From contig JBFHXP010000001.1 in the NCBI GenBank assembly GCA_041598875.1, forward strand, positions 26,179 through 90,178: a stretch of 64,000 nt of DNA, in the 5' to 3' direction. The stretch is from Desulfobulbales bacterium (GTDB taxonomy: Bacteria > Desulfobacterota > Desulfobulbia > Desulfobulbales > BM004). Of this stretch, positions 4,609 through 32,027 are shown piece after piece. Under the pieces are notes generated by a model, which saw only the letters and a program-made list of their open reading frames with translations, was not told the origin of the DNA and searched no databases. The translations under genes were made by a program, and so were the position numbers. The stretch's first letter is position 1. Each line of letters opens with the position of its first letter.

Positions 4609-6414
4609 CTAACCGAGATAGAGCAGGAGCAGCAGAAAAAAGAGGACAAAGACCCCGGAGCTGCCCACGGAAAAATAGGAGATGCGAAATTTTTCAATAA
4701 ATCTTTCCTCCAGGCCGCCGGGTCCTTTTATCCTTCCGTTGGAAAGCTCCCAGACCGGCTTGAGCACGGCAATACAGAGCCGGGCCGGCCCATCCTGAAA
4801 GTATCGGGAAAGCCCGCCGGTCCAGCCCTGGGCAACAGTCTTGTTGACCCAGGAGTTCAATCCGTTCAGCCAGGAGTCCAGGTTCATGTAAATCAGGGAC
4901 CCGCCGCGGCGGTAGAACCAGTCGAAATCAAGGGCAATGGTATCGGTCCGTTTCAACATCGGCAGAAAGAGAAAAAAGACCAGACCGGAAAATATCAGCA
5001 ATTGGGTCTGGGTAACCACATGGGAGAAATGATGGATATAAATCTCGTAAAAGGTATAGGGCATGGCCGCCTTGACGATTTCCGTATCCGGCAGGATGTT
5101 ATAGAGCCTTTCCGGAAACATGCCCAGGTAGATGCAGAAGAAGGAGAGAAAGGCCATGGCGGCCAGCATTGATTTGGGCGCTTCCGGCGGGCGCAGGCCT
5201 TTATCTTTGGCAAAAAACACAAAGTAGGGGAATTTTATTCCCGCATGGAGGAAAACACCGGCAGAGGCTATTTCCAGAATCAGCCAGGCCCAGAACATAT
5301 GGTTTCCAGCAGCTTCGGCAATAATTATTGTCTTACTGGTAAATCCGGAGGTCAGGGGAACCGAAGATATTGCCAGGGCGCCGACACAGCCGAAAATAAG
5401 TGTCCAGGGCATGGTATTGTAGAGTCCGCCAAGATCGGTGCATTTACTTTTCCCTGTCCGATAGAGTACGGCCCCGGCACTCATCCACAAAAGCGCCTTA
5501 TAGATTATGTGGCAGAAGGCATGGGCCACGGCGCCGTTCAAGGCCAGGGGGGTGCCAATTCCCACGGCACAGACCATGAAGCCGACCTGGTTGATAATCG
5601 AGTAGGCCAGGATCCGCCGCATATCATTTTCCAGCAGGGCATAGATAATTCCGTAAATTGTCATGGCGCAGCCAATGACGATGAGAATCTCCCAGCCCGG
5701 AAACCCGCGGATCAGGGTATAAACAGCTGTTTTTGAGGTATAGGCGCTCAGGATCACGCCGCCCATGACTGTGGATTCCGGGTACGCGTCCGGCAGCCAC
5801 GACGAAAAAGGCACGGCCGCGGCGTTCACCAGAAAACCAATCAGTATGAGCCAGGTGCCAGTGTTGGCCATGGCTGGGTCAAAGGAGTTGAAAGAAATGG
5901 AACCGGTCTGGTGAATGGTGATGATTATACCGGCAAGCAACACCAGCCCCCCGAATATATGGACCAGCACATAGCGGAAGGCGGCCTGATAGGCCTTTTT
6001 CGTTTTGCGCCCCAGGACAAGATAGACCGAGGTGACGGCCATGACCTCCCAGAAAATATACAGGGTGATGATATCACCGGCAAAGACCACCATCAGTGAT
6101 GCGCCGATATAGAGCAGGGCGGAAACGAACTGGGTTGAATTCCTTTCGTAGTACCCGTAGAGAAAGGCGGCAAATGCGCTCAGGGTAAAGATATAGCCAA
6201 AGGCCTTGCTCCACTTGTCGACCCGCAGAAGGTCGAGCTCAAAATCAATGAGCTGCACCGTCATGGTGACCGATTCCGAAAGCTGACTTATCTGCCAGAA
6301 GGCCAGGGCAGGCAGCAAGATAACAAACCAGTTCCTCGCGCGACCGGGCAGAAGTGGCACCACCAGCGCGCCGAGTATGAGTATAAGTCCGGGCGGAAGA
6401 TTAAACATCGTCAT
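4609..6414 (-). CDS. MrpA/MrpD/NuoL-like proton-conducting antiporter subunit with a C-terminal extension
   Basis: 601 aa with a PF00361-type core (WLPDAYPE.., HAFCHIIYKALLWM). It has ~120 extra C-terminal residues ending in a single TM (VFVLFFLLLLLYLG), reminiscent of the NuoL/MrpA lateral helix plus anchor. Confidence 0.85.
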   Translation of the reverse strand: MTMFNLPPGLILILGALVVPLLPGRARNWFVILLPALAFWQISQLSESVTMTVQLIDFELDLLRVDKWSKAFGYIFTLSAFAAFLYGYYERNSTQFVSALLYIGASLMVVFAGDIITLYIFWEVMAVTSVYLVLGRKTKKAYQAAFRYVLVHIFGGLVLLAGIIITIHQTGSISFNSFDPAMANTGTWLILIGFLVNAAAVPFSSWLPDAYPESTVMGGVILSAYTSKTAVYTLIRGFPGWEILIVIGCAMTIYGIIYALLENDMRRILAYSIINQVGFMVCAVGIGTPLALNGAVAHAFCHIIYKALLWMSAGAVLYRTGKSKCTDLGGLYNTMPWTLIFGCVGALAISSVPLTSGFTSKTIIIAEAAGNHMFWAWLILEIASAGVFLHAGIKFPYFVFFAKDKGLRPPEAPKSMLAAMAFLSFFCIYLGMFPERLYNILPDTEIVKAAMPYTFYEIYIHHFSHVVTQTQLLIFSGLVFFLFLPMLKRTDTIALDFDWFYRRGGSLIYMNLDSWLNGLNSWVNKTVAQGWTGGLSRYFQDGPARLCIAVLKPVWELSNGRIKGPGGLEERFIEKFRISYFSVGSSGVFVLFFLLLLLYLG

Positions 6415-6667
6415 CCTCGTAATAAGTCACATCTTTTTTCAGAAAAAACCCTAACCCCTTGGCCACGAGAATGCAGATCGCGCAGGCCAGAAATCCCAGC
6501 ACCGCATAGAAGCCAAAAAAATCTTCCTGGGGAAAATGATTTTTCCGGTGGATAAACGGCTCCAGCGCCAGAGAGAGGGCACAGACCCCCCATAAAATCC
6601 ACCAGAGTACTTTTCTCGTCTGCGGGCGGTCAAAAACCCCCCCATCTATTTCCGGTTCCGGCATCAC
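6401..6667 (-). CDS. Small 2-TM membrane protein embedded in the Mrp-like cluster
   Basis: 88 aa with two hydrophobic helices and an acidic tail (YYEDDDV). It overlaps the next gene by 14 nt. No family recognised. Confidence 0.5.
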   Translation of the reverse strand: MMPEPEIDGGVFDRPQTRKVLWWILWGVCALSLALEPFIHRKNHFPQEDFFGFYAVLGFLACAICILVAKGLGFFLKKDVTYYEDDDV

Positions 6668-6674
6668 TGGTCCC

Positions 6675-8147: not shown

Positions 8148-8179
8148 AATCTATATTCTAAAGGGAAGGTTAAGGAGCT

Positions 8180-9670
8180 TTATAATCCTGATGGAATTGC
8201 CCACTGTACGATATGGGTGACAATTTCATTGGTATAGAGACCGATAACAACAAGGGTGGCGGCGGTCACAACCATCGGGACAATCATGGTTGCCGGCGCC
8301 TCATCTCTGGGCGGCAGGGCATGATCACCGTGGGCCTCAAAGGTGCCGAAATAGGCAATCTCGATAAGCCGGAAAAAGATGACGGCATTTATCAGACTTG
8401 AAAAGAGCAGGGCCACCACGTAAACCCACTGCCCGGCCTCAATTCCGCCCTGGATAAGATACCATTTACTGAAAAACCCGCAGGTCGGCGGAATACCGAT
8501 AATTGAAAACGCGCCCAGGATGAATACCGCCGAGGTTATCGGCATCCTGCGGAAGACGCCCTCCATGGCGGCAAAAGATGATGTGCCGGTTTTATAGATC
8601 ATGGCGCCCACGGCCATGAACAGACAGAGGGTCATCACCGCGTCACTCAGGATGTGGTAGATGGTGCCGGTAAGGCCGTTGGCATTAGCCAACCATGCCC
8701 CGCCGACCATATACCCAACCTCGGCTACGATAATATAGGTGAGCATCTTTTTCAGATCCCGCTGGGCCAGGGCGGAAATCGAACCAGCGACAATGGCCAG
8801 ACTGGCAAACCAGACAACCAGCTCGTGCCACGGTATGGTCTTAAAAACGTAGTCCACGGAAAATACCGAGAACATCATCCGGACCATGACATAGACGCTG
8901 ACCTTGGTCATAAGAGGGGCAACCAGGCAACTGGTGGTGGTGGAGGCCTGGCTGTAAGCATTGGGCAGCCAGCCGTGCATGGGGAAGAGACCCATTTTGA
9001 TCCAGAAACCCAGAATAATCAGGATAAAGCCGATGCGGATGGTGGCCGATTCATGCATTTCCGCCCGGGAAAGAATGGCAAAGAGATCCGCCATGTTCAG
9101 GGTTCCGGTCTTGATGTAGAGATAGCCGACCCCCAGGAGATATAAGCAGGCGCCGATGGTGCCCAGGATGATGTATTTGAAGGTGGCGTAATAGGCAAGG
9201 CCGCGGCCGCGTGCCAGCAGGGCATAGCTGGACAGGGCGGATATCTCCAGCAGAACATAAAGGTTAAAGGCATCCCCGGTGGCGACCATCCCAAGCAGGC
9301 CGGAGACAAGCAGGCAGTACAGGGTATAATAATGATGAATCCGGTCCGGGATCTCCTGGCGAACCGTCTCTTTTGAGTAGACAGCGGTGAGCAGGGCACA
9401 CCCTGAGACCATGCAGAGCACCAGGGCGCCGAGGTGGTCGACAACCAGCTCGATGCCAAAGGGCGGGGGCCAGTTGCCAAGCCGGTAGCGGATCGATTCA
9501 GTGGTCAGCATGACCTGAACAAGGGTATTCACCGCCGCGAAGAAAGACCCGGCCATTGCCAGCACCAGCAGAACAAAGGCAAGGGTGTCGCGGCGGCCGG
9601 CAAAAAGGCTGATCGCAAAGGCCGCCAGCAAGGGAAAGAGCAGGACAAGAATGGGATAATGTTCAGCCAT
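8180..9670 (-). CDS. MrpD/NuoM-like antiporter subunit
   Basis: 496-aa polytopic protein with motifs MHGWLPNAY and VAEVGYMVGG, in the NuoL/M/N-MrpD family. Confidence 0.9.
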   Translation of the reverse strand: MAEHYPILVLLFPLLAAFAISLFAGRRDTLAFVLLVLAMAGSFFAAVNTLVQVMLTTESIRYRLGNWPPPFGIELVVDHLGALVLCMVSGCALLTAVYSKETVRQEIPDRIHHYYTLYCLLVSGLLGMVATGDAFNLYVLLEISALSSYALLARGRGLAYYATFKYIILGTIGACLYLLGVGYLYIKTGTLNMADLFAILSRAEMHESATIRIGFILIILGFWIKMGLFPMHGWLPNAYSQASTTTSCLVAPLMTKVSVYVMVRMMFSVFSVDYVFKTIPWHELVVWFASLAIVAGSISALAQRDLKKMLTYIIVAEVGYMVGGAWLANANGLTGTIYHILSDAVMTLCLFMAVGAMIYKTGTSSFAAMEGVFRRMPITSAVFILGAFSIIGIPPTCGFFSKWYLIQGGIEAGQWVYVVALLFSSLINAVIFFRLIEIAYFGTFEAHGDHALPPRDEAPATMIVPMVVTAATLVVIGLYTNEIVTHIVQWAIPSGL

Positions 9671-10065
9671 TATTTTTCAATGGTCTCCAGGAGTTCATCT
9701 TCTTCAATGGTGCCATGCACCCGATAGATCTTCTGTAAAACTGCAAGGGCCACACCCAGGGTGGAAACACCGACCACAATGGCGGTCAGCATAAGCACAT
9801 GGGGTAACGGATTGGCATAGAGGGTCGGATCAATAGCCTGATGGGCCACATCGCCATGGCCATGGATGAGAATCGGGATGGAGGCCCCCTTCTTGTGACC
9901 GATGGAGACATAGAAGAGGATGATCGCCGACTGAAAAATCGACATGCCTATCACCTTCTTGAGCAGATTGTTCTTGGCAATCATCCCATAGAGGCCGATG
10001 AGCAAGAGAATCAGGGCAGCCCAGTAGTTATATTTGGCAACGACATCGTGCAATAGATCCTGCAT
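9670..10065 (-). CDS. MrpC/MnhC (NuoK-like) subunit
   Basis: 131 aa with 3 TM helices. The N-terminal segment reads YNYWAALILLLIGLYGMIAKNNLLKKVIGMSIFQSAIILFYV. The stop/start overlaps the next gene. Confidence 0.85.
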   Translation of the reverse strand: MQDLLHDVVAKYNYWAALILLLIGLYGMIAKNNLLKKVIGMSIFQSAIILFYVSIGHKKGASIPILIHGHGDVAHQAIDPTLYANPLPHVLMLTAIVVGVSTLGVALAVLQKIYRVHGTIEEDELLETIEK

Positions 10066-10073
10066 AACGTTCC

Positions 10074-10823
10074 CTAAAGCCCCTCGTCCAGATCCCCGCC
10101 CGAGGCGAGATCAACATAAAGTGAAAACATGATCGCCATAACGGTGATGGCAACGCCGACCTCAACCCCCAGCATGCCATGGGAGTGGGCCTCCAACTCG
10201 GTAATTCCCAGGAGGGTGCTCCAGGAGGCATAGGCAAGAAAGTTACCGCCCAGCAGAAGGCAAACGGCGCCGATGCCCACATAGATGAGCACACCGATAC
10301 CGCTTAAGCGCAGTACGGTTTTTTCCTTGAGGCGTTTAAGCACCATCTTGAGATCATAAGATATGGCCATGAGGATGAAACTGGCCCCTAAAATGACCCC
10401 GCCCTGAAAACCGCCGCCCGGACTGTGATGGCCGTGGGCAACCACATAGAGGGCAAAAATCTGCATCACCGGCACCAGAATACGGGACGCTGCCTGCAGA
10501 ATAATATCCGCATCCTTCCGGCTGGGCCGGGGCCTGGCAATTTTTTCCTTTTTGCGGTGGGTCCGGCGCAACACGGTGAGCACGGTAATGCCGGCGCAGA
10601 AAATAACAATGGTTTCAAACATGGTGTCATACCCGCGATAATCGGCCAGCACCGCAGTAACCATGTTGGGAACAGAGGTCTCCTCCATTGTTTTTTCAAT
10701 AAAATGAGGCGAGAGGTAGACGCTGGCCGGCGAATGGGGATCTCCCCAGTCAGGGAAATCACCCGCAGCCACGAGCAGCAGCACACCGATGGCGCATATT
10801 ATGAGAAAGGCGATTTGTTTCAA
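10074..10823 (-). CDS. MrpB/MnhB-domain subunit (MbhE/F-like fusion)
   Basis: Contains VTAVLADYRGYDTMFETIVIF and HGHHSPGGGFQGGVILGA, both hallmark MnhB-domain motifs. Confidence 0.85.
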   Translation of the reverse strand: MKQIAFLIICAIGVLLLVAAGDFPDWGDPHSPASVYLSPHFIEKTMEETSVPNMVTAVLADYRGYDTMFETIVIFCAGITVLTVLRRTHRKKEKIARPRPSRKDADIILQAASRILVPVMQIFALYVVAHGHHSPGGGFQGGVILGASFILMAISYDLKMVLKRLKEKTVLRLSGIGVLIYVGIGAVCLLLGGNFLAYASWSTLLGITELEAHSHGMLGVEVGVAITVMAIMFSLYVDLASGGDLDEGL

Positions 10824-10859
10824 AATGTTACCCTATCAAATGTGATCAATTCCAGTCCA

Positions 10860-11123
10860 TCAGTCCCGGGATCTCCGTTTTATGTGCAGGGCCGTGCCCA
10901 CCAGGAGCACGGTGCTCACTCCGGCGCCAACCGCGGCCTCGGTAAAGGCGACATCCACGGCCAGCATTTCAGTCCACATCAGACACATGAGAAAGCTGTA
11001 CGCCCCGCCGACAACCGCGCAGCTTACCAGGTCCCTGATGGTCAATGCCGCCACGGCGCAGAGAATGACCATAGCGAGAATCAACACATCGAATTGCCAT
11101 AACAGGCTGGTGTCCCAACTCAT
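10860..11123 (-). CDS. DUF4040 / MbhD-like subunit (equivalent of the MrpA C-terminal domain)
   Basis: 87 aa with 3 TM helices and the motif VDVAFTEAAVGAGVSTVLL. It sits between the mrpG and mrpB homologs, as in Mbh/Mbx membrane arms. Confidence 0.7.
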   Translation of the reverse strand: MSWDTSLLWQFDVLILAMVILCAVAALTIRDLVSCAVVGGAYSFLMCLMWTEMLAVDVAFTEAAVGAGVSTVLLVGTALHIKRRSRD

Positions 11124-11132
11124 TTTTTTCCC

Positions 11133-11504
11133 CTAGACTTGTTTTTCTTCCTTCCGGCGCTCTATGTCGAAACAGGCGTCACATTCTTGTTTGCGTTTTG
11201 TCCAGCATTTGACCTGGGCCTCAAAGCCGGCATCCATGATCGCGTGGGTGGCTGTGGGGCTGGCGATAAAAATAAAAACAATGATAAAGAGAATCTTGAT
11301 CGCAACAAGGCTCGTGCCAACCGTGAAATGGTTCAGGTGATAGAGGGCCAGCCCAGCGAGAAGCAGCACCGAAGAAAGGGTGTCGCCCTTGCCCGCGGCG
11401 TGCATGCGGGAGTAAAAGTCCGGAAAGCGGATGAGGCCGACCGAAGTGCCAAGGTAAAAAAAGAGGCCGAGACTTACGAGAAAGATGACTGCGATGTTAA
11501 GCAT
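11133..11504 (-). CDS. MrpG/MnhG subunit
   Basis: GLIRFPDFYSRMHAAGKGDTL is the signature MnhG motif. Confidence 0.85.
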   Translation of the reverse strand: MLNIAVIFLVSLGLFFYLGTSVGLIRFPDFYSRMHAAGKGDTLSSVLLLAGLALYHLNHFTVGTSLVAIKILFIIVFIFIASPTATHAIMDAGFEAQVKCWTKRKQECDACFDIERRKEEKQV

Positions 11505-11827
11505 TACTGTGCCGCCTCCGGTTGATTTTCCGTATCCACTTGTTTGCGGCGCTGGAAAAAGCGGGCCGCGGCCAACGAGGCGATGAAGTTCAGGAGGGCA
11601 TAGGCAATGGCGATATCGACAAACATGTCCACCTGATGATACAGGGTGCCGATGATAATGATCATGACCGTGGTCTTGGTGCCGATGACATTGACCCCCA
11701 GGACGCGGTCAATAACCGTGGGCCCATAGATCGCCCGGTATAGGGGCATGAACATGAAAAGCAGAAGAAGTACTCCGGCCAGGATAAAAAAGAAATCCAT
11801 GAAATCGCCAGACGCCGTTGCTTGCAT
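11504..11827 (-). CDS. MrpF/MnhF subunit
   Basis: The YRAIYGPTVIDRVLGVNVIGTKT motif, 3 TM helices, and overlapping start/stop codons with both neighbours. Confidence 0.85.
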   Translation of the reverse strand: MQATASGDFMDFFFILAGVLLLLFMFMPLYRAIYGPTVIDRVLGVNVIGTKTTVMIIIIGTLYHQVDMFVDIAIAYALLNFIASLAAARFFQRRKQVDTENQPEAAQ

Positions 11828-12333
11828 TATCTGTGCCCCCCCTCAAAGACCCAGGCCACCCGCCTCTCCATCTCGCTCATGTTTTCACTTGCAAGGTCCC
11901 CGGCAGCCTGACCACTGATCGCGTGAATATAAAAAAGATCGTCATGGATACGGATGGTCACCGTGCCGGGGGTCAGGGTGATGGAGTTGGCAAGCACGAA
12001 TTTGGCAAAATCGGTTTTGAGCTTTGTCCGGAAGGTGAAAATATAGGGATCGATTTCCCGCCGCATGATCCGCGGCGAGATCGCCAGGGCGATAACATGA
12101 AAATTGGCCACCCCTATCTGCCAGAAGAGCCAGCCGCAATAAGGGATAAAACGAAACGCCTCCTGAAGCCGCGCTGCCAGCCCCTTTTTCCGTTCCTGGA
12201 AAAAAAGATCCGCGGAGAGCAGGGTCACGATCAGGCAGGAGACCCCCCCCAGCGCCAGGTGGAACAGGTCGAATTTACCGGACAACATGATCCAGGCGAC
12301 AAAAAAGATGATAAAGGTTGCTACTGAAAACAT
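11827..12333 (-). CDS. MrpE/MnhE subunit
   Basis: LANSITLTPGTVTI motif and N-terminal WIMLSG helix. First gene of the Mrp-like block. Confidence 0.85.
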   Translation of the reverse strand: MFSVATFIIFFVAWIMLSGKFDLFHLALGGVSCLIVTLLSADLFFQERKKGLAARLQEAFRFIPYCGWLFWQIGVANFHVIALAISPRIMRREIDPYIFTFRTKLKTDFAKFVLANSITLTPGTVTIRIHDDLFYIHAISGQAAGDLASENMSEMERRVAWVFEGGHR

Positions 12334-12410
12334 AGGCCACGCGGAAGTGAGGGTTTTATTTTCCTGTCATGATGAGCGTATCTATCGATTTCCTATGACT
12401 AAAATCCCAA

Positions 12411-13271
12411 TCAGTCAAGTATTATCTCTCTTTTCCGCTCTCCCTCATAGATAGAGGCGGTTTTGGCGACAATAAAATTGTTCTCAGGATTTTCCGCATC
12501 AGAGTCAACATTGATCCCGCCGATATACACCGCCTTGATCCCGCTTTCCCGGAGCAGGGAGTCAAAAACCCGGGAGCCAAGCTCAAGAAGCTTATCTGCG
12601 GCCGCTGCCATGGGATAGGGATTAGAGGATATCTCTTCAAGATAGGGCAGCAGCGCCTTTTCCACCTCATTCATCTCAAAATCACTGAGGTCGCGAAGAA
12701 CCTTTCCCGCCTTGCGATCCTTGTGCCGGGCAAGGACCCCGGCAAGAAGGCCGCATGACGAACCGGGTTTCTGCATCCCATACCTGTCGGTCAACCCAAG
12801 GGTCTCTTGCGAGTCACAGCCGACATGGGTCGCGTGCACCACCACGGTCCATTGGTTCTCTTTGACTTCCGGGATATGGTGCGATGGCGGCCCGAGGCTC
12901 TCCACGCTGCGGCCGGCCGGATAGGCGCCAAAGGCGTTGAGATCAAACCAGCCGGAACTCTTGCCAACCCCAGCCAGCAAGGAACCGAGCCGATCCTGGT
13001 TGTCATCTCGACATAAGCATTTTATACCCAGGGCGTTTTCCCCCAGACTGATTCCCTCATTATCAAGGGTTCGCTGGAGAAGAGAAACAAAGTCCGCATA
13101 GGTATACAACGCCCCTTCGCCTGAAAAGGCGTCCTTGATTTTTATTGCCGGATTTTCTCTGTTTTTTTGCATTCCACACCCCGTAATAGTGTATTCACTT
13201 TCTTTGCGGCTCACTGACTGCAATTCAAGGCTGCAAGCCGCATTCTTTTTTAACTCATTGTTATTTTGCAA
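12411..13271 (-). CDS. Soluble Cys/His-rich protein of unknown function (possible metalloenzyme)
   Basis: No TM helices and no family recognised with confidence. Conserved-looking motifs are IKCLCRDD, VVVHATHVGCD and GSSCGLL. The likely real start is M34 (ATG at 13172), because the first 33 codons are AT-rich and atypical. Confidence 0.6.
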   Translation of the reverse strand: MQNNNELKKNAACSLELQSVSRKESEYTITGCGMQKNRENPAIKIKDAFSGEGALYTYADFVSLLQRTLDNEGISLGENALGIKCLCRDDNQDRLGSLLAGVGKSSGWFDLNAFGAYPAGRSVESLGPPSHHIPEVKENQWTVVVHATHVGCDSQETLGLTDRYGMQKPGSSCGLLAGVLARHKDRKAGKVLRDLSDFEMNEVEKALLPYLEEISSNPYPMAAAADKLLELGSRVFDSLLRESGIKAVYIGGINVDSDAENPENNFIVAKTASIYEGERKREIILD

Positions 13272-13298
13272 CTATTCTGCTGCGCACCCTAAACTGGG

Positions 13299-14789
13299 TT
13301 AAACTGCAGGCAGATAGACCTGCATGCCCATGAGCGGCCAGACGAACTGGACCGCAATCCAGGTAATAACCATCAGTATTATGCTTGCCGGAACTCCGTA
13401 CATAAAGAATTCACCGGTGGTGAACTGCTTGGAGTTGTAGGCAATGGCATTGGGCGCCGCGCCAACCAGCAGCAGAAAGGGCATACCCGCCACCACCAGG
13501 GAGGAGAAGAGAATTACCTCGCCGGCAACGCCAAGATAGGGAGCGATAACCAGGGCCACCGGCAGGGAGATGGCAATGGCCGCCACGTTCATGATGAAGT
13601 TGGTCATCATCATGACGAAAAAGGCCATGCCGAGGATAAAAACAATTGCCGGGGCGCTCTGGAACAGGGTGAGCCAGTTGACCGCCATCCACTTGGCGGC
13701 CCCGGTCTCCCAGAGGCAGAAGCCAATGGACATGGCGCCGGCAAAGAGCAGAATAATGTTCCAGGGGATCTCTTCCAGGTCATTGATATCCAGGATATTG
13801 ACAATAAAGAACAGGATGGTGGAGCAGAGAAGGATACCTGTCTTGTCAAGAGGTTCGAGTGCGGGAACAAAGGCCTTGGCCGAGATGACCACGATGGTGG
13901 AGACAACGATAAAGGTGGCCATGATCTCTTTTTTGGACCAGGAGCCAAGCTCCCTGTACATCCTCTTGGCCTTTTCCTTCAGCCCTGGGATCGATTCCCT
14001 CTCAGGCTTGCAGACAAACATGAAAAATCCCCACAGGGCAAAGGTCATGCCCCAGCCGATGGGGAACATGTAATAGGTGAGTTCGAAAAAGCTGATATCG
14101 ACATTGGTGATATCCTTGTAGAAACCAAGGGCCACGGCGCCGCGGGCCGCGCCCAGCAGGGTGATGATACTGCCGGCGCCGGCCACGTAGGCCATGCCCA
14201 TGAACAACCCCTTGCCGAACTTGGTGGGCCCGGTTTCTTCGGAATAGAGGGCGTAAATCGCCATCAGCAAAGGAAACATGGTGGCAGCGACCGCGGTGTG
14301 GGCCATGATGTGGGTGAGCGCCGCGGTCAGCACAAAACAGCCGAGATAGATCATTGAGGTCTTCTCGCCGACAATGGAGAGCATTTTATAGGCAATGCGT
14401 TTGGTCAAGCCGGTCTTGGTGAAGACCATGCCGATAACAATGGAGCCGAAAATAAAGAGAACCGAGGGATCCATGAAATCCTTGAAGGCAACCTTGGCCG
14501 GGCGGATGAAAAACAGGGCCTGGACCATGCCGATGGTCAGGCTGGTGACACCGATCGGCACCACCTCGAAAACCCACCAGGTGGCGGCAAGAAGAAAGAG
14601 GGCGATGGCCCCCTTGCCTTCCATGGTCAGGAGAAAATGCTCACCCATGGGATCAACCGCATCGGGCCACAGGGGTGAATAATAGACAACGCAAAACAGC
14701 ACAACTCCCGTTACCAGGAAGATGGCCCGCTTCAAATCAAAGGGCGTCTTTTCCATAGCCACCCCCACTTCTGTCTGTGATTTTGTCAT
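13299..14789 (-). CDS. DASS/SLC13 family anion:cation symporter
   Basis: 496-aa polytopic protein. N-terminal segment ATWWVFEVVPIGVTSL and C-terminal segment GAAPNAIAYNS match the hairpin-loop motifs typical of SLC13/DASS permeases. Confidence 0.85.
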   Translation of the reverse strand: MTKSQTEVGVAMEKTPFDLKRAIFLVTGVVLFCVVYYSPLWPDAVDPMGEHFLLTMEGKGAIALFLLAATWWVFEVVPIGVTSLTIGMVQALFFIRPAKVAFKDFMDPSVLFIFGSIVIGMVFTKTGLTKRIAYKMLSIVGEKTSMIYLGCFVLTAALTHIMAHTAVAATMFPLLMAIYALYSEETGPTKFGKGLFMGMAYVAGAGSIITLLGAARGAVALGFYKDITNVDISFFELTYYMFPIGWGMTFALWGFFMFVCKPERESIPGLKEKAKRMYRELGSWSKKEIMATFIVVSTIVVISAKAFVPALEPLDKTGILLCSTILFFIVNILDINDLEEIPWNIILLFAGAMSIGFCLWETGAAKWMAVNWLTLFQSAPAIVFILGMAFFVMMMTNFIMNVAAIAISLPVALVIAPYLGVAGEVILFSSLVVAGMPFLLLVGAAPNAIAYNSKQFTTGEFFMYGVPASIILMVITWIAVQFVWPLMGMQVYLPAV

Positions 14790-14837
14790 GGCATCTACAC
14801 CTCATTCTTATAGAAATAATTTGTTGCAATTAGTGAG

Positions 14838-15380
14838 TTACAGCCTGCACCGGGTGCTGATTCCCTTGAATATCTCCTCGAGCCGGATGACACCGACAAC
14901 GGCCTCTTCCTCAAGAACCGGCAAGATAACCTCATTGGTGCTGAGCATGATGGACAGGGCCTTCAAGAGAGGGTCGCCCCCCTTGACAATGTGCCGTATC
15001 GGAGTCAAAAACGTCTTGATCGCCTTGCCGGACTGCCGGGAACAGCCCTCAAAAAAGGAGTCCTCCCACATGATTGTCAGATTGGGAAAATCAGTCCCCT
15101 TTCCTTCAAACTTTTTGACCTTTGCAAGTTCGACCAGCCGGGAGTCAAGCCCCATCAGTATGCTCTGCAGATTGATACGGCCGACCAGCTTGTTCTGATC
15201 ATTAATAACCAAGATCTCGGAATACCTGAGGCGCTCGTTTTCACCGCAGGTGTATGCCATGATCACCTGCACGGCATCGTGGATCGTCTGGTTCTCGTTT
15301 AAATGGGGGTACCTCTCCAGGGGAATAGTATAACGCCTGACAACCGGATTATCTGCGCTCACAAGCAACCTCCTTCTCAA
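14838..15380 (-). CDS. CBS domain pair protein
   Basis: 180 aa with two CBS-like segments (..ILVINDQNKLVGRINLQSIL.. and ..VILPVLEEEAVVGVIRLEEIF..). No other domain. Confidence 0.8.
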   Translation of the reverse strand: MRRRLLVSADNPVVRRYTIPLERYPHLNENQTIHDAVQVIMAYTCGENERLRYSEILVINDQNKLVGRINLQSILMGLDSRLVELAKVKKFEGKGTDFPNLTIMWEDSFFEGCSRQSGKAIKTFLTPIRHIVKGGDPLLKALSIMLSTNEVILPVLEEEAVVGVIRLEEIFKGISTRCRL

Positions 15381-15529
15381 TAAATATGGTGTCGAGTTAA
15401 ACTCTGTGGTGTTTTTTCATGATCTGCCGGCCGCCCAGGACGCACCTTTCCACTGCCGGGTTGATTCAGGCTACTGAACAACCCTGCGATCAGGGGACTG
15501 CAAAACGGTTTTCTGGATTTACGGCTGAC

Positions 15530-15970
15530 CTACCAGCTCTTGCTTTTGAGTATCTTCTTCACTTCTTCTTCACGCCCCTTTTCCACAACCACCATCCGCT
15601 TGTTCTTGGCCTGGCTGATCTTCTCGAGCAGCACATTCAAGTCAACCGGCTTTTCAAGGAAATCCTCGGCGCCGAGCTTCATCGCCTCGATGCCGGTTTT
15701 TACCGTGGCATGGCCGGTGAGCATGATAATCTCGAGATCAGGGCGGCTTTCCTTGATCCGCCTCAGGGTCTCAATGCCGTCGATTCCCGGCATTGCGAGG
15801 TCGACAACAATGGCGTCAAAATTCTTCTCCTTGGCCTGCTCAATGGCATCCTCTCCGCTGGTCACCGCGTTTACCTTGAGGCCACGGGTTTCCAGGCGCT
15901 GGGAAAGCGCATCCAAAAATTGCTCCTCATCATCAACCAGCAATACACTGGCCTCAATTTTTTCAGCCAT
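15530..15970 (-). CDS. Stand-alone response-regulator receiver
   Basis: Canonical receiver residues: LLVDDEE, VVDLAMPGIDG, MLTGHAT, LEKPVD. No output domain. Confidence 0.9.
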   Translation of the reverse strand: MAEKIEASVLLVDDEEQFLDALSQRLETRGLKVNAVTSGEDAIEQAKEKNFDAIVVDLAMPGIDGIETLRRIKESRPDLEIIMLTGHATVKTGIEAMKLGAEDFLEKPVDLNVLLEKISQAKNKRMVVVEKGREEEVKKILKSKSW

Positions 15971-15979
15971 TACAGTCTC

Positions 15980-16447
15980 CTATTTAGTATCTTCTTTTTT
16001 ATCGAGAAAATTCCGGGCCATATCCGGTTCACCGGCCTCGGCAAAGGCCGCGGCAGCCATGGTGTCCTGAATTTTATCCCGATACGCGTCTTTTATGGAT
16101 TTGACCAGATGATCGATATCAACCGGTTTTTTGATATAATCATATATGCCGATCCGCCGGGCCTCATCCTCATCCCGGTCCGACCCATGCCCGGTCAGAA
16201 TAATCACCCTGATGTCAGGAAATTTTTTCTTGACCCGCCGCAAGACCTCGATGCCGTCGATGCCGGGCATCTTAAGATCGAGCACCATCACGTCCGGCTC
16301 CCTGTCGTCGACAAAACTCAAGGCCTGCTCGCCGTCAAAGACGGTCTCGTTTTCCAGGTCCCGCATCTGCAGCCGCTCAGACAGGGTCTTAACAAACTCC
16401 TGCTCATCATCAACAAGCAATACCTTCATCTTAGCCATGTTTTCCAC
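15980..16447 (-). CDS. Stand-alone receiver with a C-terminal FAEAGE-type tail motif
   Basis: Canonical receiver residues: LLVDDEQ, VLDLKMPGIDG, ILTGHGS, IKKPVD. The tail reads IQDTMAAAAFAEAGEPDMARNFL. The start is likely M4 or M7. Confidence 0.9.
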   Translation of the reverse strand: MENMAKMKVLLVDDEQEFVKTLSERLQMRDLENETVFDGEQALSFVDDREPDVMVLDLKMPGIDGIEVLRRVKKKFPDIRVIILTGHGSDRDEDEARRIGIYDYIKKPVDIDHLVKSIKDAYRDKIQDTMAAAAFAEAGEPDMARNFLDKKEDTK

Positions 16448-16979
16448 CCGTTTGCTCGTCAGGATTCTTTTCTTTTGACCGAAGACCGTCGTCGTCCCGG
16501 TCCATTATTTCCCTGGCGGAGTCATACTCCCCGGCCTGGGCAAAGGTGGCAGCCATCATTGCCCCTTCAAATATATCCAGCAATGACCGTTTCCGGCCCT
16601 TCTTCTTCAGCGCCTTCCGCCGCTCGACCGCTTCCTGGATTTTCTCCCGCAGAGTACGGATATCAAAAGGCACCATCAGTTCATCCGAGGCACCTTCACG
16701 CATACCCTCCATGGCATACGGCACACTCTCCGGGCTGCTCAAGAGGATTATCTCAATCCCCGGCTCTTCCTTTTTCAGGCTCTTGAGAAGCCTGATCGAA
16801 TCAGCGCCCTGATCCCGGATATCAAGAACCGCCACATCAATTTTCCGGCCCGAACTGATTTCAAGCGCTTCAAACTGATTGGCGGCGCTGATTATTTTAC
16901 CCTGGACAAGACCTATCCTGCTGACCAGATTCTGGAGAAACTGGGAATCGGCCATTACGATTAAGATTAAAGGGGACAT
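16431..16979 (-). CDS. Degenerate receiver-domain protein with a C-terminal FAEAGE-type tail motif
   Basis: Receiver fold with phospho-Asp context VAVLDIRD and ILLSS. The acidic pair is weakened (MAD) and the conserved Lys is replaced (MVPFD). The tail reads IFEGAMMAATFAQAGEYDSAREIM. Confidence 0.8.
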   Translation of the reverse strand: MSPLILIVMADSQFLQNLVSRIGLVQGKIISAANQFEALEISSGRKIDVAVLDIRDQGADSIRLLKSLKKEEPGIEIILLSSPESVPYAMEGMREGASDELMVPFDIRTLREKIQEAVERRKALKKKGRKRSLLDIFEGAMMAATFAQAGEYDSAREIMDRDDDGLRSKEKNPDEQTGGKHG

Positions 16980-17044
16980 GACACAGACCTTCTTCGTGTT
17001 GGTCCTCTTCCATGACTATACCCACCACACCGACCGGAAACCAC

Positions 17045-17332
17045 TCAGCAATCAATGGTCCCAAAGGCAAGATGCGCACCCGGAATCCCCAGCTCACTGA
17101 AGTCGCTGCGAGAAGAACCGCGGCCCTTCTCCCTGGGCTCAATCATGTTCAACGCCTCATTATAGAGTCCGGACTCGGCAAAGGTCACTGCCGTGAAAAT
17201 CTTATCGAACCAGGTAATGTTCGCGGTTCGCCGGACCTCCGGCATGATCTCCCTGGCGGTGTCCCACTCTCCTGCCTCGGCAAAAGTCACGGCCATCATC
17301 ATATCCTGGATTTTTTTTAAGGTCTTTTTCAT
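17045..17332 (-). CDS. 95-aa protein made of two FAEAGE-type motif copies
   Basis: First ORF downstream of the sigma54 promoter. It contains IQDMMMAVTFAEAGEWDTAREIM and WFDKIFTAVTFAESGLYNEALNMI. The motif DNA is about 75% identical to the copy in the next gene. Confidence 0.6.
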   Translation of the reverse strand: MKKTLKKIQDMMMAVTFAEAGEWDTAREIMPEVRRTANITWFDKIFTAVTFAESGLYNEALNMIEPREKGRGSSRSDFSELGIPGAHLAFGTIDC

Positions 17333-17398
17333 GGCAGGCCTCCTGTGGTGTACTGTGTACTCGGAACCATCATTCCTCTTGACTTCACTATAGTACTA

Positions 17399-17413
17399 GC
17401 AAAAGGTGTGCCA
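17399..17413 (-). promoter_or_regulatory. Sigma54 (RpoN) -24/-12 promoter
   Basis: The minus strand reads TGGCACACCTTTTGC, a near-perfect match to TGGCAC-N5-TTGC. It lies 66 nt upstream of the 95-aa ORF start. An AT-rich tract just upstream (17414-17450) could be an IHF site. The bEBP gene is adjacent. Confidence 0.75.
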
Positions 17414-17787
17414 AATTATTTAAACGAGTAAATTCAGTATATTAAAATATTTGGGGCCAATCGCCCCCCCGCCCCAGAAATACAAAAGGAAACGAATTGA
17501 AACAAAACAGAAAGGTGGTGCCGCCCCAAGGTTAGCTAATCTTTTTAGATATCAGTATGTTGTCCACTTCTTACAGCACGATCGAGGGCAAACCGACCCC
17601 AAACGACACACATTGACACATAATGAAACAAGACAGGTTGTCTCGTGGGAATTGAATGCGTCCACCCGACACCACTCCCCGGGTTTCATGGTGGAGTCAC
17701 AATTTTCCCCCGAGACCGCGGACTGCGAGCACTTTTACCGCAGCCATCTCTTCGATATTCCGGGGATAGAGTTTTTTCGGCACTGAT

Positions 17788-19158
17788 TCAGGTTTTTTCA
17801 TCCCGAAAGGAGTGCAGGTCAATCCCATGTCGATTGATCTTGTCATACAGGCTTTTTCTCGAAATCATCAGGGCCTTATGGGTGGCGATGACCTGGCCCT
17901 TGTGCGCACGCAGCGCGGCAATAATATGATTCTTTTCCGCCTCATCCACCGCCTGCCGCAGAGGGACCGGCTGACCCGCGCGGGACTCCGGCCCTGTTGC
18001 CGAACCTGTTTCATCTGCCCCGGAAAGCGCATCGCGGTAAACACACAGCCTTCTTATATGGTTTTTAAACTCCCGGACATTTCCCGGCCACTCCCGTCTG
18101 CACAAACGATTCACGGACACGGAGTCAAAAGAGGCCGGATCCATGCCGTACTCCTTGCAGAAATGATGCAACAGAAGGGGTATGTCCGACAGCCGCTCCC
18201 GCAGGGGCGGGACTGTAATCGGCAGCACATTCAGCCGGAAATAGAGATCCTGGCGGAAACGCCCGGCCCCTATCTCGCTGGCAAGAACACTGTTTGTCGC
18301 CGACAGGATCCGCGCCCGCACCGGGGTGGGGGTATTTGCCCCAAGGCGGGTGACCGCCCGATCCTCCAGGACCCGGAGGAGCTTTGCCTGCAGGCCCACG
18401 GGCATGCTGCATATCTCATCAAGAAAAATCGTGCCTTTGCCGGCATATTCAAACTTACCCATCTTGGCCAGCCCGGCCCCGGTGAAGGCCCCTTTTTCAT
18501 GGCCGAACAGCTCCGCCTCGAGCATTTCCGTGGGTATTGCCCCCATGTTGACGGCAACAAAGGGCCCTTCACTCCGTGTTGACAGATTATGAATGGCCCG
18601 GGCCACCAGCTCCTTGCCGGTACCGGTCTCACCGGAAATCAGGACCGGGTCATCTTCCCGTGCCACGATCTCGATGGTGTCATAAAGACGCCGCATCAAA
18701 TGGTGGCCGCCGACAAGACCGTTAAAGCTGAAACGCGCCCCCCGGACCCGTTCCAGCTGGCGGCAGAGCCCCCGGTTATCGAGAACCAGCCGCATCTTTT
18801 CCACTGCCCGGGAAAGGGCGCCTAAAAGGATCTCCTCGTCCACCGGCTTTTCGAGAAAATCGTATGCCCCGTTCTTCATCGCCTTGACCGCCATATCGAC
18901 ATCACCGTGGCCGGTCACCATGATCACCGGCAGATCACGATCCTGGACCCTGGTCCGCTGTAAAAATTCCAGTCCATCAATCAGGGGCATCTTGATGTCG
19001 GCGATCACCGCGAGATAGACGCCGGAGGAAAGCGAGGCCAGGGCCTCGGCCGGGGTGCTGAAACTGTCGACCTCATACCCGTGCATGGTGAGGGTCTGAT
19101 GTATGGCAATGAGCAGATACGTGTCATCGTCGACCACCAGTATTTTTCCGATTTTCAT
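17788..19158 (-). CDS. NtrC-family sigma54-dependent response regulator (REC-AAA+-Fis HTH)
   Basis: Receiver (ILVVDDD, IADIKMP), AAA+ Walker A GETGTGKE, GAFTGA loop, and a C-terminal HTH. The start is chosen at MKIGKIL (19158), giving a 7-nt gap after the kinase gene. Confidence 0.9.
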   Translation of the reverse strand: MKIGKILVVDDDTYLLIAIHQTLTMHGYEVDSFSTPAEALASLSSGVYLAVIADIKMPLIDGLEFLQRTRVQDRDLPVIMVTGHGDVDMAVKAMKNGAYDFLEKPVDEEILLGALSRAVEKMRLVLDNRGLCRQLERVRGARFSFNGLVGGHHLMRRLYDTIEIVAREDDPVLISGETGTGKELVARAIHNLSTRSEGPFVAVNMGAIPTEMLEAELFGHEKGAFTGAGLAKMGKFEYAGKGTIFLDEICSMPVGLQAKLLRVLEDRAVTRLGANTPTPVRARILSATNSVLASEIGAGRFRQDLYFRLNVLPITVPPLRERLSDIPLLLHHFCKEYGMDPASFDSVSVNRLCRREWPGNVREFKNHIRRLCVYRDALSGADETGSATGPESRAGQPVPLRQAVDEAEKNHIIAALRAHKGQVIATHKALMISRKSLYDKINRHGIDLHSFRDEKT

Positions 19159-19165
19159 ACATCCA

Positions 19166-20455
19166 TTACCTGTGTGCATCTGCGTCCTCTTCGCAACGCG
19201 GGGGCAGGTGAATCAAAAAACAGGCCCCTTCCCCCGGCGCACTTTCCACTTTGATAAAACCACCGCTTTCCCGGACTATCCGGTCAACGATGGACAGGCC
19301 CAGGCCCATTCCGGTCCCCACCTCCCGGGTGGTGAAAAAGGGATCAAAGATCCTGGTCAGCACATCAGGAGAAATTCCCGTGCCGGTATCCCGAATCGCG
19401 GCAACAACATACTCTTTTTCCTGGAGGCTCTCGGGCTCAATACTCTTTATTGTACTGGTTTTTATCGTCAAACGCGGGGAGTCGGTTTCCCCCATTGACT
19501 GGACCGCATTCTGAATGACATTCAAAAAGACCTGCTCAAACCTGACCTCCTGGCCGATGACCAGGGGAACAGAGCGGTCAAGGTCCAGCTCCACCTCAAT
19601 ATCCGAAAGGGCAAGCTGGCTGTCGAGAAACTTGAGAATATTGATTAAAATTGAATTAATTTCCACGGGGCAGGAGTCGGAGACCTCTTTACGGGCAAAA
19701 CTTTTCAGACTCTTGATAATTGATGAGGCCTTTTTTATCCGGTCGATAATGATCTGGAGATTTTCCTCCAACAGCTCTCTGTTAATGGTCGGCTCTTCTA
19801 AGGCTTTCAGACAGTTGCGCGAAAAGAGAAGCATCGCGTTCAAGGGCTGGGTCAATTCATGGCCTATCCCGGCCGCCATCTCGCCAAGGCTGGCCAGCCG
19901 GCCGGAGTGAATCAACTGCTCCTGGGCCTCTCGAATCCTGGACATCATCTTATGGGCATCGCTCATGTCCCTGGCAATCATCATGTGAAGCACCCGGCCC
20001 GATTCCGTGACAAAGGTCGAGCCATTGATGCTTACCCGAATCCTCTCCCCCCCACGGGCCTTGAATTCCGTTTCCCAGTTCTTGAACTCACCGGCGGAAA
20101 TACGTGCCTTGAGGGAGCGGCACGCCCCCTCATCCATGAGTGCATCCAGGGAGACCCTGCCATAATCTTCTGCCGGAAAATCAAGCAGGTGCAAAAACTC
20201 CTCGTTTGAGTTGGCAATAACAAAGTCCTTTGTCATGACAAAAAAGAGGTCTGAAAGACTTGCAAGGATCTTCTCTGAAAAGACCTTTTCCGTCTGGACC
20301 TCTTCATGTTTCTTCAGAATCCGAACGACCAGATCCTGTTTCTGCCTTTCAAGCAGTTCAACCAGTTTTTCGTTCGGCTCCATTCCCCTCGCACCCGCCC
20401 TTGACCATACACCTGAAAATTCACCCGGAGTACCCAGACCCCGACCCTGTGTCAC
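19166..20455 (-). CDS. PAS-domain sensor histidine kinase (cytoplasmic)
   Basis: H-box MAAGIGHELTQPLN, N-box NVIQNAVQS, G-boxes DTGTGI and GTGMGLGLS. A PAS-like region lies N-terminal and there are no TM helices. An alternative start is at 20383 (MEPNEK). Confidence 0.9.
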   Translation of the reverse strand: MTQGRGLGTPGEFSGVWSRAGARGMEPNEKLVELLERQKQDLVVRILKKHEEVQTEKVFSEKILASLSDLFFVMTKDFVIANSNEEFLHLLDFPAEDYGRVSLDALMDEGACRSLKARISAGEFKNWETEFKARGGERIRVSINGSTFVTESGRVLHMMIARDMSDAHKMMSRIREAQEQLIHSGRLASLGEMAAGIGHELTQPLNAMLLFSRNCLKALEEPTINRELLEENLQIIIDRIKKASSIIKSLKSFARKEVSDSCPVEINSILINILKFLDSQLALSDIEVELDLDRSVPLVIGQEVRFEQVFLNVIQNAVQSMGETDSPRLTIKTSTIKSIEPESLQEKEYVVAAIRDTGTGISPDVLTRIFDPFFTTREVGTGMGLGLSIVDRIVRESGGFIKVESAPGEGACFLIHLPPRCEEDADAHR

Positions 20456-20645: not shown

Positions 20646-20660
20646 TGGCGCAATAAATGC
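20646..20660 (+). promoter_or_regulatory. Candidate sigma54 -24/-12 promoter
   Basis: TGGCGCAATAAATGC has GG and GC at the correct 10-nt spacing. It matches TGGCACG-N4-TTGC except at 2 positions. It lies 52 nt upstream of the ATG at 20712. Confidence 0.55.
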
Positions 20661-29484: not shown

Positions 29485-29485
29485 G

Positions 29486-29884
29486 TTATTTTTCCTGCTC
29501 CATATACTGCCGTCTTTTCGCGGCAGCCAGGTTAATTTTCTGGGTAAGCTCCTTGATATCCACCGGCTTCATAATACAGTCAAAGGCCGCCCCTTTTTTT
29601 GCGTCAACCCCGACCGCCCCCCCGGAGCCGTGGCCGGTCAGTATAATCACCTCAATGGCGGGATCATATTCCTTTATGGCCGCCAGGGCCTCCATTCCGT
29701 CCATAAGCGGCATCTTCAGGTCAAGGAGAATCACCTCCGGGATATCCCCGGCATGAATCAGGGCCAGGGCATCCTCGGCACAGTGAACCGCCGATGCCGC
29801 AAAGCCCCGCAGAATCAAACGCTCCGCCAGGGTGGAGGCAAACTCCTTTTCATCGTCAACGATCAGGACCTTTACTTCAGTCAT
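29486..29884 (-). CDS. Stand-alone response-regulator receiver
   Basis: Canonical receiver residues: LIVDDEK, LLDLKMPLMDG, ILTGHGS, IMKPVD. Confidence 0.9.
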   Translation of the reverse strand: MTEVKVLIVDDEKEFASTLAERLILRGFAASAVHCAEDALALIHAGDIPEVILLDLKMPLMDGMEALAAIKEYDPAIEVIILTGHGSGGAVGVDAKKGAAFDCIMKPVDIKELTQKINLAAAKRRQYMEQEK

Positions 29885-31628: not shown

Positions 31629-31633
31629 TGGTT

Positions 31634-31981: not shown

Positions 31982-32027
31982 GCGAAATTTATTCTATTTT
32001 TACAAGGAGATTTGTCGGCAGTCACTC

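Follow-up and report, generated by a model that had tools for sequence, protein, structure and literature searches.

A predicted sigma-54-controlled gene unit for anion uptake and an LCIB-type carbonic anhydrase, joined to an Mrp antiporter operon in a Desulfobulbales bacterium

In a 64,000-nt stretch of the genome of a Desulfobulbales bacterium (contig JBFHXP010000001.1, positions 26,179 to 90,178; referred to here as the window), a sigma-54-type promoter is followed by a long run of minus-strand genes for receiver-domain (REC) proteins, a CBS-domain protein, an anion transporter of the DASS family, a protein described in a first-pass annotation as a Cys/His protein, and the subunits of a multisubunit antiporter of the Mrp type. 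The locus raises the question of whether these genes form one system, as that annotation had proposed, and what such a system would do. Comparison with related loci indicates that two units, each found independently of the other in most relatives, are combined here: a promoter-led module of seven genes and an Mrp operon. With a probability of about 0.55, we read the whole as a sigma-54/two-component-controlled module for anion (probably bicarbonate) uptake and carbonic anhydrase, to which a Na+/H+ antiporter is joined in this lineage and with which it probably shares a transcript. The features on which the argument turns are the following, in window coordinates:

19166..20455, minus strand: PAS-HisKA-HATPase histidine kinase, predicted to be cytoplasmic (Pfam domains; no hydrophobic segment)
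17788..19179, minus strand: NtrC-type bacterial enhancer-binding protein (bEBP) with REC, Sigma54_activat and HTH_8 domains (Pfam)
17605..17629, minus strand: predicted distal upstream activator site, tandem GTTTC/GTGTC repeats
17477..17510, minus strand: predicted proximal upstream activator site, tandem GTTTC repeats
17398..17413, minus strand: sigma-54 promoter TGGCAC-N5-TTGCT (exact match, conserved in 11 loci)
17045..17332, minus strand: ORF95, a small soluble protein (homologues, profile search, alignment)
16431..16979, minus strand: REC182, a pseudo-receiver (Pfam, alignment)
15980..16447, minus strand: REC155, a canonical single-domain receiver (Pfam, alignment)
15530..15970, minus strand: REC146, a canonical single-domain receiver without a tail motif (Pfam, alignment)
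15437..15461, minus strand: conserved box of ~25 nt, TCCGGnACAGGnnAnnTGCGTCCT, in the REC146-CBS spacer (spacer alignment)
14838..15380, minus strand: stand-alone CBS-pair protein (Pfam CBS domains)
13299..14789, minus strand: divergent DASS-family anion transporter (Pfam Na_sulph_symp)
12411..13172 (open reading frame as listed to 13271), minus strand: LCIB/theta-type beta-carbonic-anhydrase homologue without a REC domain (Pfam LCIB_C_CA)
11133..12333, minus strand: MrpE, MrpF and MrpG (Pfam MNHE, MrpF_PhaF, PhaG_MnhG_YufB)
9670..11123, minus strand: MbhD-like and MbhE+MnhB proteins, which represent the C-terminus of MrpA and MrpB, and MrpC/NuoK-like protein (Pfam)
8180-9670, minus strand: MrpD1, antiporter-like (PF00361) subunit (Pfam)
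6675-8147, minus strand: MrpD2, antiporter-like (PF00361) subunit (Pfam)
6401-6667, minus strand: conserved 88-aa two-helix membrane protein
4609-6414, minus strand: 601-aa MrpD-like (PF00361) subunit (Pfam; NCBIfam PRK12668)

The promoter (TGGCACACCTTTTGCT, 17413-17398, minus strand) matches TGGCAC-N5-TTGCW exactly, with the -24 GG and -12 GC at canonical spacing, and is the one such match found in the 64 kb, where 0.06 would be expected. For comparison, 24 LCIB-encoding loci were assembled from genome and metagenome collections and by exact look-ups. In 11 of the 11 loci covering the corresponding region, a TGGCAY-N5-TTGCW site lies 67-116 nt upstream of the ORF95 homologue, and it is the sole strict match within the 15-21 kb of each locus, except in L002, in which a second strict match precedes a second ORF95-REC-REC copy. 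The promoter proposed in the first-pass annotation is thus borne out, being exact in the window and holding the same position in every related locus with sequence upstream. The upstream activator sites are two groups of GTTTC repeats arranged in tandem at a 10-bp period, the proximal cluster ~90 nt and the distal one ~216 nt upstream of the -24 element. The strict pattern GTTTC-N5-GTKTY has only two matches in the 64 kb (17503 and 17629; shuffle mean 0.75), both upstream of the promoter, and equivalent sites are present in L001-L006, L014, L015, L021, L024, L026 and in Thiovibrio, there in a divergent promoter region. The GTTTC clusters together with a perfect -24/-12 promoter present the architecture of predicted bEBP sites; the window contains two bEBP genes with a Sigma54_activat domain (17788-19179 and 32028-33488), and transcription from the promoter is probably sigma-54-dependent. 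Looser sigma-54 matches in the window occur at chance level (3 versus 2.1 expected with one mismatch, 30 versus 31.7 with two), and internal sigma-54 promoters, e.g. at 11304 or 11823, are accordingly not claimed. Between the promoter and the proximal activator site, at 17453-17467 (minus strand), lies a hairpin rich in GC (GGGGCGATTGGCCCC) with an A/T-rich run behind it; this might halt transcripts entering from the kinase and NtrC genes, or belong to the region in which the promoter bends.

The order ORF95-REC182-REC155-REC146-CBS-DASS-(REC)LCIB is kept wherever the sequence suffices, namely in the same numbered loci that carry the GTTTC sites. From the conservation of promoter, GTTTC sites and gene order, the seven genes and their control region form a truly conserved unit, present in more than 12 Desulfobulbales loci, in agreement with the earlier proposal that the receiver array, the CBS protein, the DASS transporter and the Cys/His protein belong together. 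DASS is its most conserved gene (74-87% identical in relatives); REC146 is 76-85% and REC155 68-79% identical, and the CBS protein is 48-58% identical and always lies between REC146 and DASS. The whole block that had been put forward for a synteny check is conserved from the promoter through LCIB, but neither the junction with Mrp nor the kinase/NtrC pair is.

Within the window itself, the chain of genes is unbroken. The kinase and activator genes overlap by 14 nt, and 17 genes run from the promoter down to 4609, or 19 when the kinase/activator pair is counted, rather than the 20 first reported downstream of the promoter. The intergenic gaps going downstream (65, -17, 9, 149, 48, 27, 77 and then ≤36 nt) are identical to those originally given, and the open reading frame listing and Pfam scans agree. 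None of the gaps in the chain was assigned a terminator-like site by a consensus scan, in agreement with the first inspection by eye. Folding against shuffled sequence revealed no hairpin with a U-run in the 149-nt, DASS-LCIB or 77-nt spacers (z-scores of -0.12, -1.59 and -0.16, respectively), and an Rfam scan of 3-34 kb returned no match; with no Rfam match in these spacers and folds that do not surpass those of shuffled sequence, we propose neither a riboswitch nor an attenuator or terminator for them, and note just a weak hairpin. A 455-aa ATG-started open reading frame on the plus strand (15419-16786) was rejected as spurious: it runs antisense across the three conserved receiver genes and is an artefact of their composition.

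The Cys/His protein matches Pfam LCIB_C_CA (PF18599) with 64 bits (cut-off 25), and its sequence matches solved LCIB-family chains in the PDB (E = 1.9e-9). Residues Cys87, His149 and Cys173 (numbering of the 286-aa form) align to the zinc ligands of PtLCIB4, which we take to be Cys46, His102 and Cys126, a numbering that agrees with the names of the S47R and H88A mutants in PDB entries. All 13 homologues compared keep these three residues and the His that corresponds to PtLCIB4 His88. An AlphaFold model of the protein (pLDDT 69.8, pTM 0.74) was searched against the PDB with Foldseek; the top eight matches were all of the LCIB family (TM-score 0.57-0.78), and only LCIB-family structures fell below E = 1e-3. 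The profile, alignment and model together identify the protein as a predicted LCIB/theta-type beta-carbonic anhydrase homologue with an intact Cys-His-Cys zinc site. The earlier suggestion of a system for inorganic carbon, or possibly pH, is backed by this identification, its function being a prediction from family membership. No hydrophobic segment and no membrane-anchoring or docking feature was found in the protein; because of the missing hydrophobic segment, and because its fusion form carries a cytoplasmic receiver domain, it is taken to be cytoplasmic. Its likely start is the ATG at 13172, which gives a protein of 253 aa identical to a database entry and widens the DASS-LCIB gap to 126 nt.

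The close homologues of this protein (n = 54) come nearly all from metagenome-assembled genomes of Desulfobulbaceae, and 44 of them are REC-LCIB fusions of ~362 aa, one in the same 90% cluster as the window protein; the receivers are thereby tied directly to the enzyme. Locus L012, with 96.5% DNA identity to the window, encodes such a 362-aa fusion. In the window, ~516 nt of L012 (273-788, the whole receiver-coding part) are replaced by ~200 unrelated nt (13107-13306, minus strand), which contain a strong hairpin with no U-run and leave a receiver-less 253-aa enzyme; the two forms therefore coexist at roughly the species level. In L017 (3719-8800) a REC-LCIB gene is found without DASS, in a variant context: a TrkA-type K+-transport regulator lies on one side, and an ArsR regulator, tandem Usp and Sm_multidrug_ex proteins on the other. 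The Sm_multidrug_ex protein of that locus is 75% identical to the one encoded after Mrp in the window (3758-4408).

The transporter is encoded next to LCIB in 19 of 20 loci. It matches Pfam Na_sulph_symp with 133 bits (cut-off 27) and NCBIfam TIGR00785 with 182.5 bits, under the 198.6 cut-off of that model. In VcINDY, two Ser-Asn-Thr motifs at the hairpin tips bind Na+ and carboxylate; on alignment, these are replaced by AHT and MNV in the window protein, and SPPN by AARG, so an INDY-type dicarboxylate is an unlikely substrate. The loss of the carboxylate-type SNT motifs would also suit a module for a sulfur oxyanion or some other anion, with DASS as a carrier of sulfate, sulfite or thiosulfate and the LCIB fold serving as a sensor or as a COS-/CS2-hydrolase-like enzyme. 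The hosts are sulfur-cycling Desulfobulbales, the DASS family is named for Na+/sulfate symport, TauE genes flank the locus (2916-3773 and 23494-24897), and in Thiovibrio a sigma-54 ORF95-REC-REC head stands before a TauE permease. A sulfur anion nevertheless seems an unlikely answer: the three zinc ligands and the His88 equivalent are invariant, the sole relatives of the protein in fold and sequence are LCIB carbonic anhydrases, and alignments with SLC13A1, which are partial and not residue-by-residue, give no positive evidence of a sulfate site.

The genes at 12333-4609 are of a different standing. All Mrp subunit families (PF00361 subunits, B, C, E, F and G) are present by Pfam, and the 601-aa subunit scores 677 bits against NCBIfam PRK12668, an equivalog for Na+/H+ antiporter subunit D (cut-off 564). 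By gene content, the block is thus a full operon for an Mrp-type Na+(cation)/H+ antiporter, antiport itself being predicted, and operons of this type are common in the Desulfobulbales (1,090 matches to MrpE homologues). Its position was scored in the 23 LCIB loci, the window among them, for which 700 nt or more of downstream sequence exist. In three of these, Mrp comes straight after LCIB: the window, its close relative L012, and L026, a distant metagenome contig whose LCIB is 64%, and whose Mrp proteins are 40-65%, identical to those of the window. Such a break in synteny between the blocks had been named beforehand as the result that would refute the single supra-operon, and for Mrp that part of the proposal falls. 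The same block, its 88-aa protein and long third subunit included, occurs in Thiovibrio sp. JS02 (64-89% identity), and Mrp without LCIB is found in at least five loci and at least four different neighbourhoods. In Thiovibrio sp. JS02, L010/L011 and L028 it lies directly behind a cassette encoding a PAS-bEBP, a FeMoCo-like protein, a dCache kinase and a REC protein, with no LCIB nearby; in L030 it follows a TauE gene; and in L029 (10001-15683) it sits among housekeeping genes with two antiporter-like subunits and lacks the 88-aa protein and the ~600-aa third subunit, a pair that may thus be an accessory module. The Mrp block is thus a separate, widespread operon, and the best reading of its position is that it was secondarily joined to the LCIB module in this lineage.

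What the junction means can be read in more than one way. The 77-nt LCIB-Mrp gap of the window contains no terminator-like and no sigma-70-like or other promoter-like site, and neither a sigma-54 promoter nor GTTTC repeats were found upstream of Mrp in the window, L009-L012 or L026. Because the spacing is short and free of a terminator or recognisable promoter, Mrp is probably read through from the sigma-54 promoter in this lineage. An incidental junction would make Mrp a housekeeping Na+/H+ antiporter operon with a weak, unrecognised promoter of its own and no regulation or function in common with its neighbours. The variety of its neighbourhoods, its absence behind most LCIB modules and the sigma-70-like promoter that precedes it elsewhere would all fit, but the junction is seen in two lineages with only 40-65% identity between their Mrp proteins, the gap looks empty, and in several further genomes Mrp comes immediately after the PAS-bEBP/dCache-kinase cassette that elsewhere stands before the LCIB module. 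This recurrence in divergent lineages, together with the repeated proximity of Mrp to one regulatory cassette, argues for a functional relation rather than an accident, and we hold mere coincidence to be quite improbable. At the other extreme, all 17 genes could encode one indivisible machine, in which LCIB docks on the Mrp-like complex with its three PF00361 subunits to make an energy-coupled vectorial carbonic anhydrase, i.e. a CO2-hydration pump. The two-lineage junction and the empty gap fit this too, and a carbonic-anhydrase-like protein beside PF00361 subunits parallels DabA/DabB and the cyanobacterial CupA/NDH-1. An obligate partnership is, however, hard to square with loci in which LCIB has no Mrp next to it (20 of 23), with Mrp blocks that have the 88-aa and 601-aa subunits without LCIB (Thiovibrio sp. 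JS02, L010, L028 and L030), with the much tighter linkage of LCIB to DASS, or with an LCIB protein devoid of anchoring or docking features; we regard it as very unlikely.

We return to the module for anion uptake with a facultative Na+/H+ antiporter. In this scheme, activation by sigma-54 and a bEBP would switch on the anion transporter, the cytoplasmic carbonic anhydrase and a layer of receivers, TPR-like protein and CBS protein. DASS would take up an anion, most likely bicarbonate together with Na+, and the carbonic anhydrase would equilibrate the imported bicarbonate with CO2 in the cytoplasm, while the receivers, the TPR-like protein and the CBS protein would tune activity after translation. 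In the Mrp-linked lineages, the co-expressed Mrp complex would extrude the co-transported Na+ and so recycle it, and its import of H+ would offset the alkalinisation arising from HCO3- -> CO2 + OH-.

Several points weigh against this scheme. On the transport side, we know of no DASS member that carries bicarbonate, and the substrate and cation motifs of the window protein differ from those of all characterised DASS proteins. Some algal LCIB proteins have no measurable carbonic anhydrase activity in vitro, and the window homologue has Arg88 at the position of the engineered PtLCIB4 S47R mutant, so CO2-hydration activity cannot be assumed for it. The paralogous operon heads of relatives precede a TauE permease (sulfite-exporter family) and not DASS/LCIB, which hints at sulfur oxyanions. 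As regards Mrp, the 20 of 23 loci with none behind LCIB count here as well, the co-transcription proposed for the window is deduced from spacing alone, and in Thiovibrio-type loci with no LCIB nearby the gap between cassette and Mrp contains a conserved TTGACG-N16/17 sigma-70-like promoter. Finally, a 2024 review of the inorganic-carbon toolkit covers SulP, SbtA, BCT1, Chr and DAB, and neither DASS nor Mrp.

Which activator would act at the sigma-54 promoter is a further question. The first-pass annotation had pointed to the PAS-kinase/NtrC pair immediately upstream as cognate-looking. The kinase has no hydrophobic segment, in keeping with its description as cytoplasmic, but the pair adjoins the module in no related locus, and the window NtrC is only 35-41% identical, in the AAA+ domain alone, to the bEBPs that do. 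In the relatives, the module is preceded by five genes encoding a PAS-bEBP, a FeMoCo-like 117-aa protein, a dCache kinase, a REC protein and a kinase-core-like protein. An orthologue of this cassette, 52-68% identical to that of L001 by tblastn, is present in the window on the same strand as the module:

28798..33488, minus strand: regulatory cassette orthologue, from PAS-bEBP to kinase-core-like protein (tblastn, Pfam, NCBIfam), comprising
32028-33488, minus strand: PAS-bEBP
31634-31981, minus strand: FeMoCo-like protein
29877-31628, minus strand: dCache kinase
29486-29884, minus strand: REC protein
28798-29484, minus strand: kinase-core-like protein

About 8-11 kb separate the cassette from the promoter, a space occupied by the kinase/NtrC pair and a plus-strand operon (20712-28700) encoding, in order, an HTH_17 protein, a dCache kinase, a REC protein, a 467-aa TauE permease, a 228-aa protein, an 873-aa PPDK_N/PEP-utilizers protein and a REC protein. 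With related regulatory and TauE-transporter genes extending to 33.5 kb, the system can hardly be called self-contained, as it had been. In Thiovibrio, the PAS-bEBP gene is divergent from an ORF133-REC-REC-HTH8-kinase-REC-TauE-228aa operon, and the intergenic region they share contains the same GTTTC repeats and a TGGCAC-N5-TTGA site; in Thiovibrio-type genomes generally, the ORF133 operon diverges from the PAS-bEBP cassette and the Mrp block. The recognition helices of NtrC and PAS-bEBP differ on direct reading. Since the activator sites are conserved between the window and the loci with that cassette, the PAS-bEBP is the more likely cognate activator, rather than or in addition to the adjacent NtrC, which may act additionally or at a site of its own. 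A candidate for the latter is TGGCGCAATAAATGCT (20646-20661, plus strand), in which GG and GC are properly spaced and which is located 50 nt ahead of the HTH_17 gene, facing away from the kinase/NtrC operon. It is possibly a weak sigma-54 promoter and an alternative target of NtrC; it belongs to the two-mismatch class, found at chance frequency and so not significant by count, and its position is what speaks for it.

The receiver layer has features of its own. ORF95 matches no Pfam or NCBIfam family; it has 38 close homologues, and a profile search recovered 438 cluster representatives. The protein is made up of two TPR-like 'FAEAGE' helical hairpins and a conserved C-terminal tail (LGL.GV.L.YGTV), each hairpin containing a motif of ~20 aa, (M)xAA(T/A)(F/Y)A(E/Q)AGE(W/Y/F)(D/E)TA(R/K). 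Exactly four copies of this motif occur in the window, two in ORF95 (17045-17332) and one each at the C-terminus of REC182 (16431-16560) and REC155 (15980-16063, all minus strand), and their distribution is the same in relatives. Most of the 438 matches are proteins of 95-135 aa with two or three repeats, some proteins having up to seven. The long matches are TPR proteins or Usp fusions, so the FAEAGE unit is probably a TPR-like hairpin; a low-confidence model of ORF95 (four helices, pLDDT only 61, of which just the secondary structure was used) also suggests so. No relevant literature was found for the motif. ORF95 and the receiver tails may assemble with each other or with a common partner. 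As first reported, one of the three receivers has a degenerate active site: REC182 keeps the phospho-acceptor Asp57, lacks the acidic pair and Lys109, and has a basic linker and a single C-terminal FAEAGE-type hairpin, while REC155 also ends in one such hairpin. When the REC146-CBS spacer was aligned across 12 loci and the window, the box TCCGGnACAGGnnAnnTGCGTCCT in its middle was conserved and the rest variable. The box resembles neither a sigma-54 nor a sigma-70 promoter, and no pairs were predicted in a consensus fold of the spacer across the 12 loci; it could be an internal regulatory or processing site.

Some further observations concern the surroundings of the two units. In L002, a second ORF95-REC182-REC155 head (7863-9366, minus strand) lies downstream of the LCIB module on the opposite strand. 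A separate sigma-54 promoter (9277) and GTTTC repeat (9366) accompany this copy, so the head seems to be a regulatory module that can be reused. Downstream of Mrp in the window, after a gap of 200 nt, come the Sm_multidrug_ex gene (3758-4408, minus strand) and a gene for a 285-aa TauE-family permease (2916-3773, minus strand), which overlap by 16 nt. In five other genomes, type II secretion/pilus genes follow the Mrp block instead, and the window block is therefore at a different chromosomal site.

The Desulfobulbales are relatives of cable bacteria and sulfur disproportionators, and to our knowledge little is known of how these anaerobic, sulfur-cycling bacteria acquire inorganic carbon and balance pH and Na+. 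If our reading holds, an operon that unites DASS and a carbonic anhydrase of algal type would be a further candidate system for bicarbonate outside the Calvin-cycle autotrophs. Fusions of receiver and carbonic anhydrase would give two-component signalling a new enzymatic output, the TPR-like tails on single-domain receivers suggest an undescribed scaffolded receiver array, and the facultative Mrp junction would offer a natural experiment in the recruitment of a Na+ cycle to an anion-uptake module, parallel to the SbtA/Mnh regulon. A bolder idea, which we consider a long shot, is that the LCIB-type enzyme is a phosphorylation-controlled response regulator with carbonic anhydrase output which, where it precedes Mrp, makes the interconversion of CO2 and HCO3- vectorial on the cytoplasmic face, the TPR-tailed receivers and ORF95 forming a scaffolded phospho-switch that gates it. 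Were this so, LCIB-Mrp would join Cup/NDH-1 and DAB as the third energy-coupled pump for inorganic carbon to have evolved independently.

Among known systems, a parallel is provided by cyanobacteria. In Synechocystis, the Mrp-like mnh operon (slr2006-2013) belongs to the NdhR/CcmR regulon and is co-regulated with sbtA/B, with a proposed role in Na+ extrusion (PMC4390856). There, as in the window, an anion symporter (of bicarbonate in that case) has a small nucleotide-sensing partner (SbtB there, the CBS protein here) and is co-regulated with a multisubunit Mrp-like complex, a co-regulation that in the window is predicted. However, the transporter, the small partner and the regulator are all non-homologous; control in the window would be by sigma-54 and two-component signalling rather than by a LysR-type repressor; and the window operon encodes a carbonic anhydrase, its link to Mrp being one of physical adjacency in a minority of genomes. 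A second parallel is with DAB (DabA/DabB) and NDH-1MS/CupA, in which a zinc-dependent, beta-carbonic-anhydrase-like soluble protein is likewise encoded beside PF00361 membrane subunits. Here, in contrast, the soluble protein belongs to the LCIB family (PF18599) and not to DabA (PF10070) or CupA, and is the sole carbonic-anhydrase-like protein found; its pairing with PF00361 genes is facultative (3/23 loci); and the membrane part is a full Mrp complex instead of a single subunit or a respiratory complex.

With the algal LCIB/LCIC proteins and the diatom theta-carbonic anhydrases, the window protein shares the Pfam family, the fold and the Cys-His-Cys zinc site. The LCIB family is named for its role in CO2-concentrating mechanisms, and a review table gives theta-carbonic anhydrases for diatoms and green algae only (PMC7215798). 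Unlike the algal proteins, the one described here has a bacterial host, is predicted to be cytoplasmic, is usually fused to a receiver and lies in an operon with DASS; in the literature searched, no paper was found in which bacterial LCIB/theta carbonic anhydrases are connected with DASS, receivers or Mrp. The antiporter has the subunit families E, F, G, B, C and D of Mrp (Mnh/Pha/Sha, CPA3), but differs from the usual form in its Mbh-like order E-F-G-B-C-D rather than A-G, in the splitting of MrpA into MbhD- and MbhE-like pieces, and in having three antiporter-like subunits and the extra 88-aa protein. SulP-carbonic anhydrase fusions are a known genetic coupling of an anion permease to a carbonic anhydrase, and DctBD-DctA a known case of a transporter under sigma-54 two-component control, in which, as predicted here, an activator of the NtrC family drives the transporter gene. 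The window module differs from both in its DASS transporter, its LCIB/theta carbonic anhydrase and its extra layer of three receivers and a TPR-like protein. Every part thus comes from a known family, and the logic of transporter, carbonic anhydrase and Na+ cycle has its parallels in known systems; this is not a new kind of machine, and its most original parts are the REC-carbonic anhydrase fusion and the TPR-tailed receiver array.

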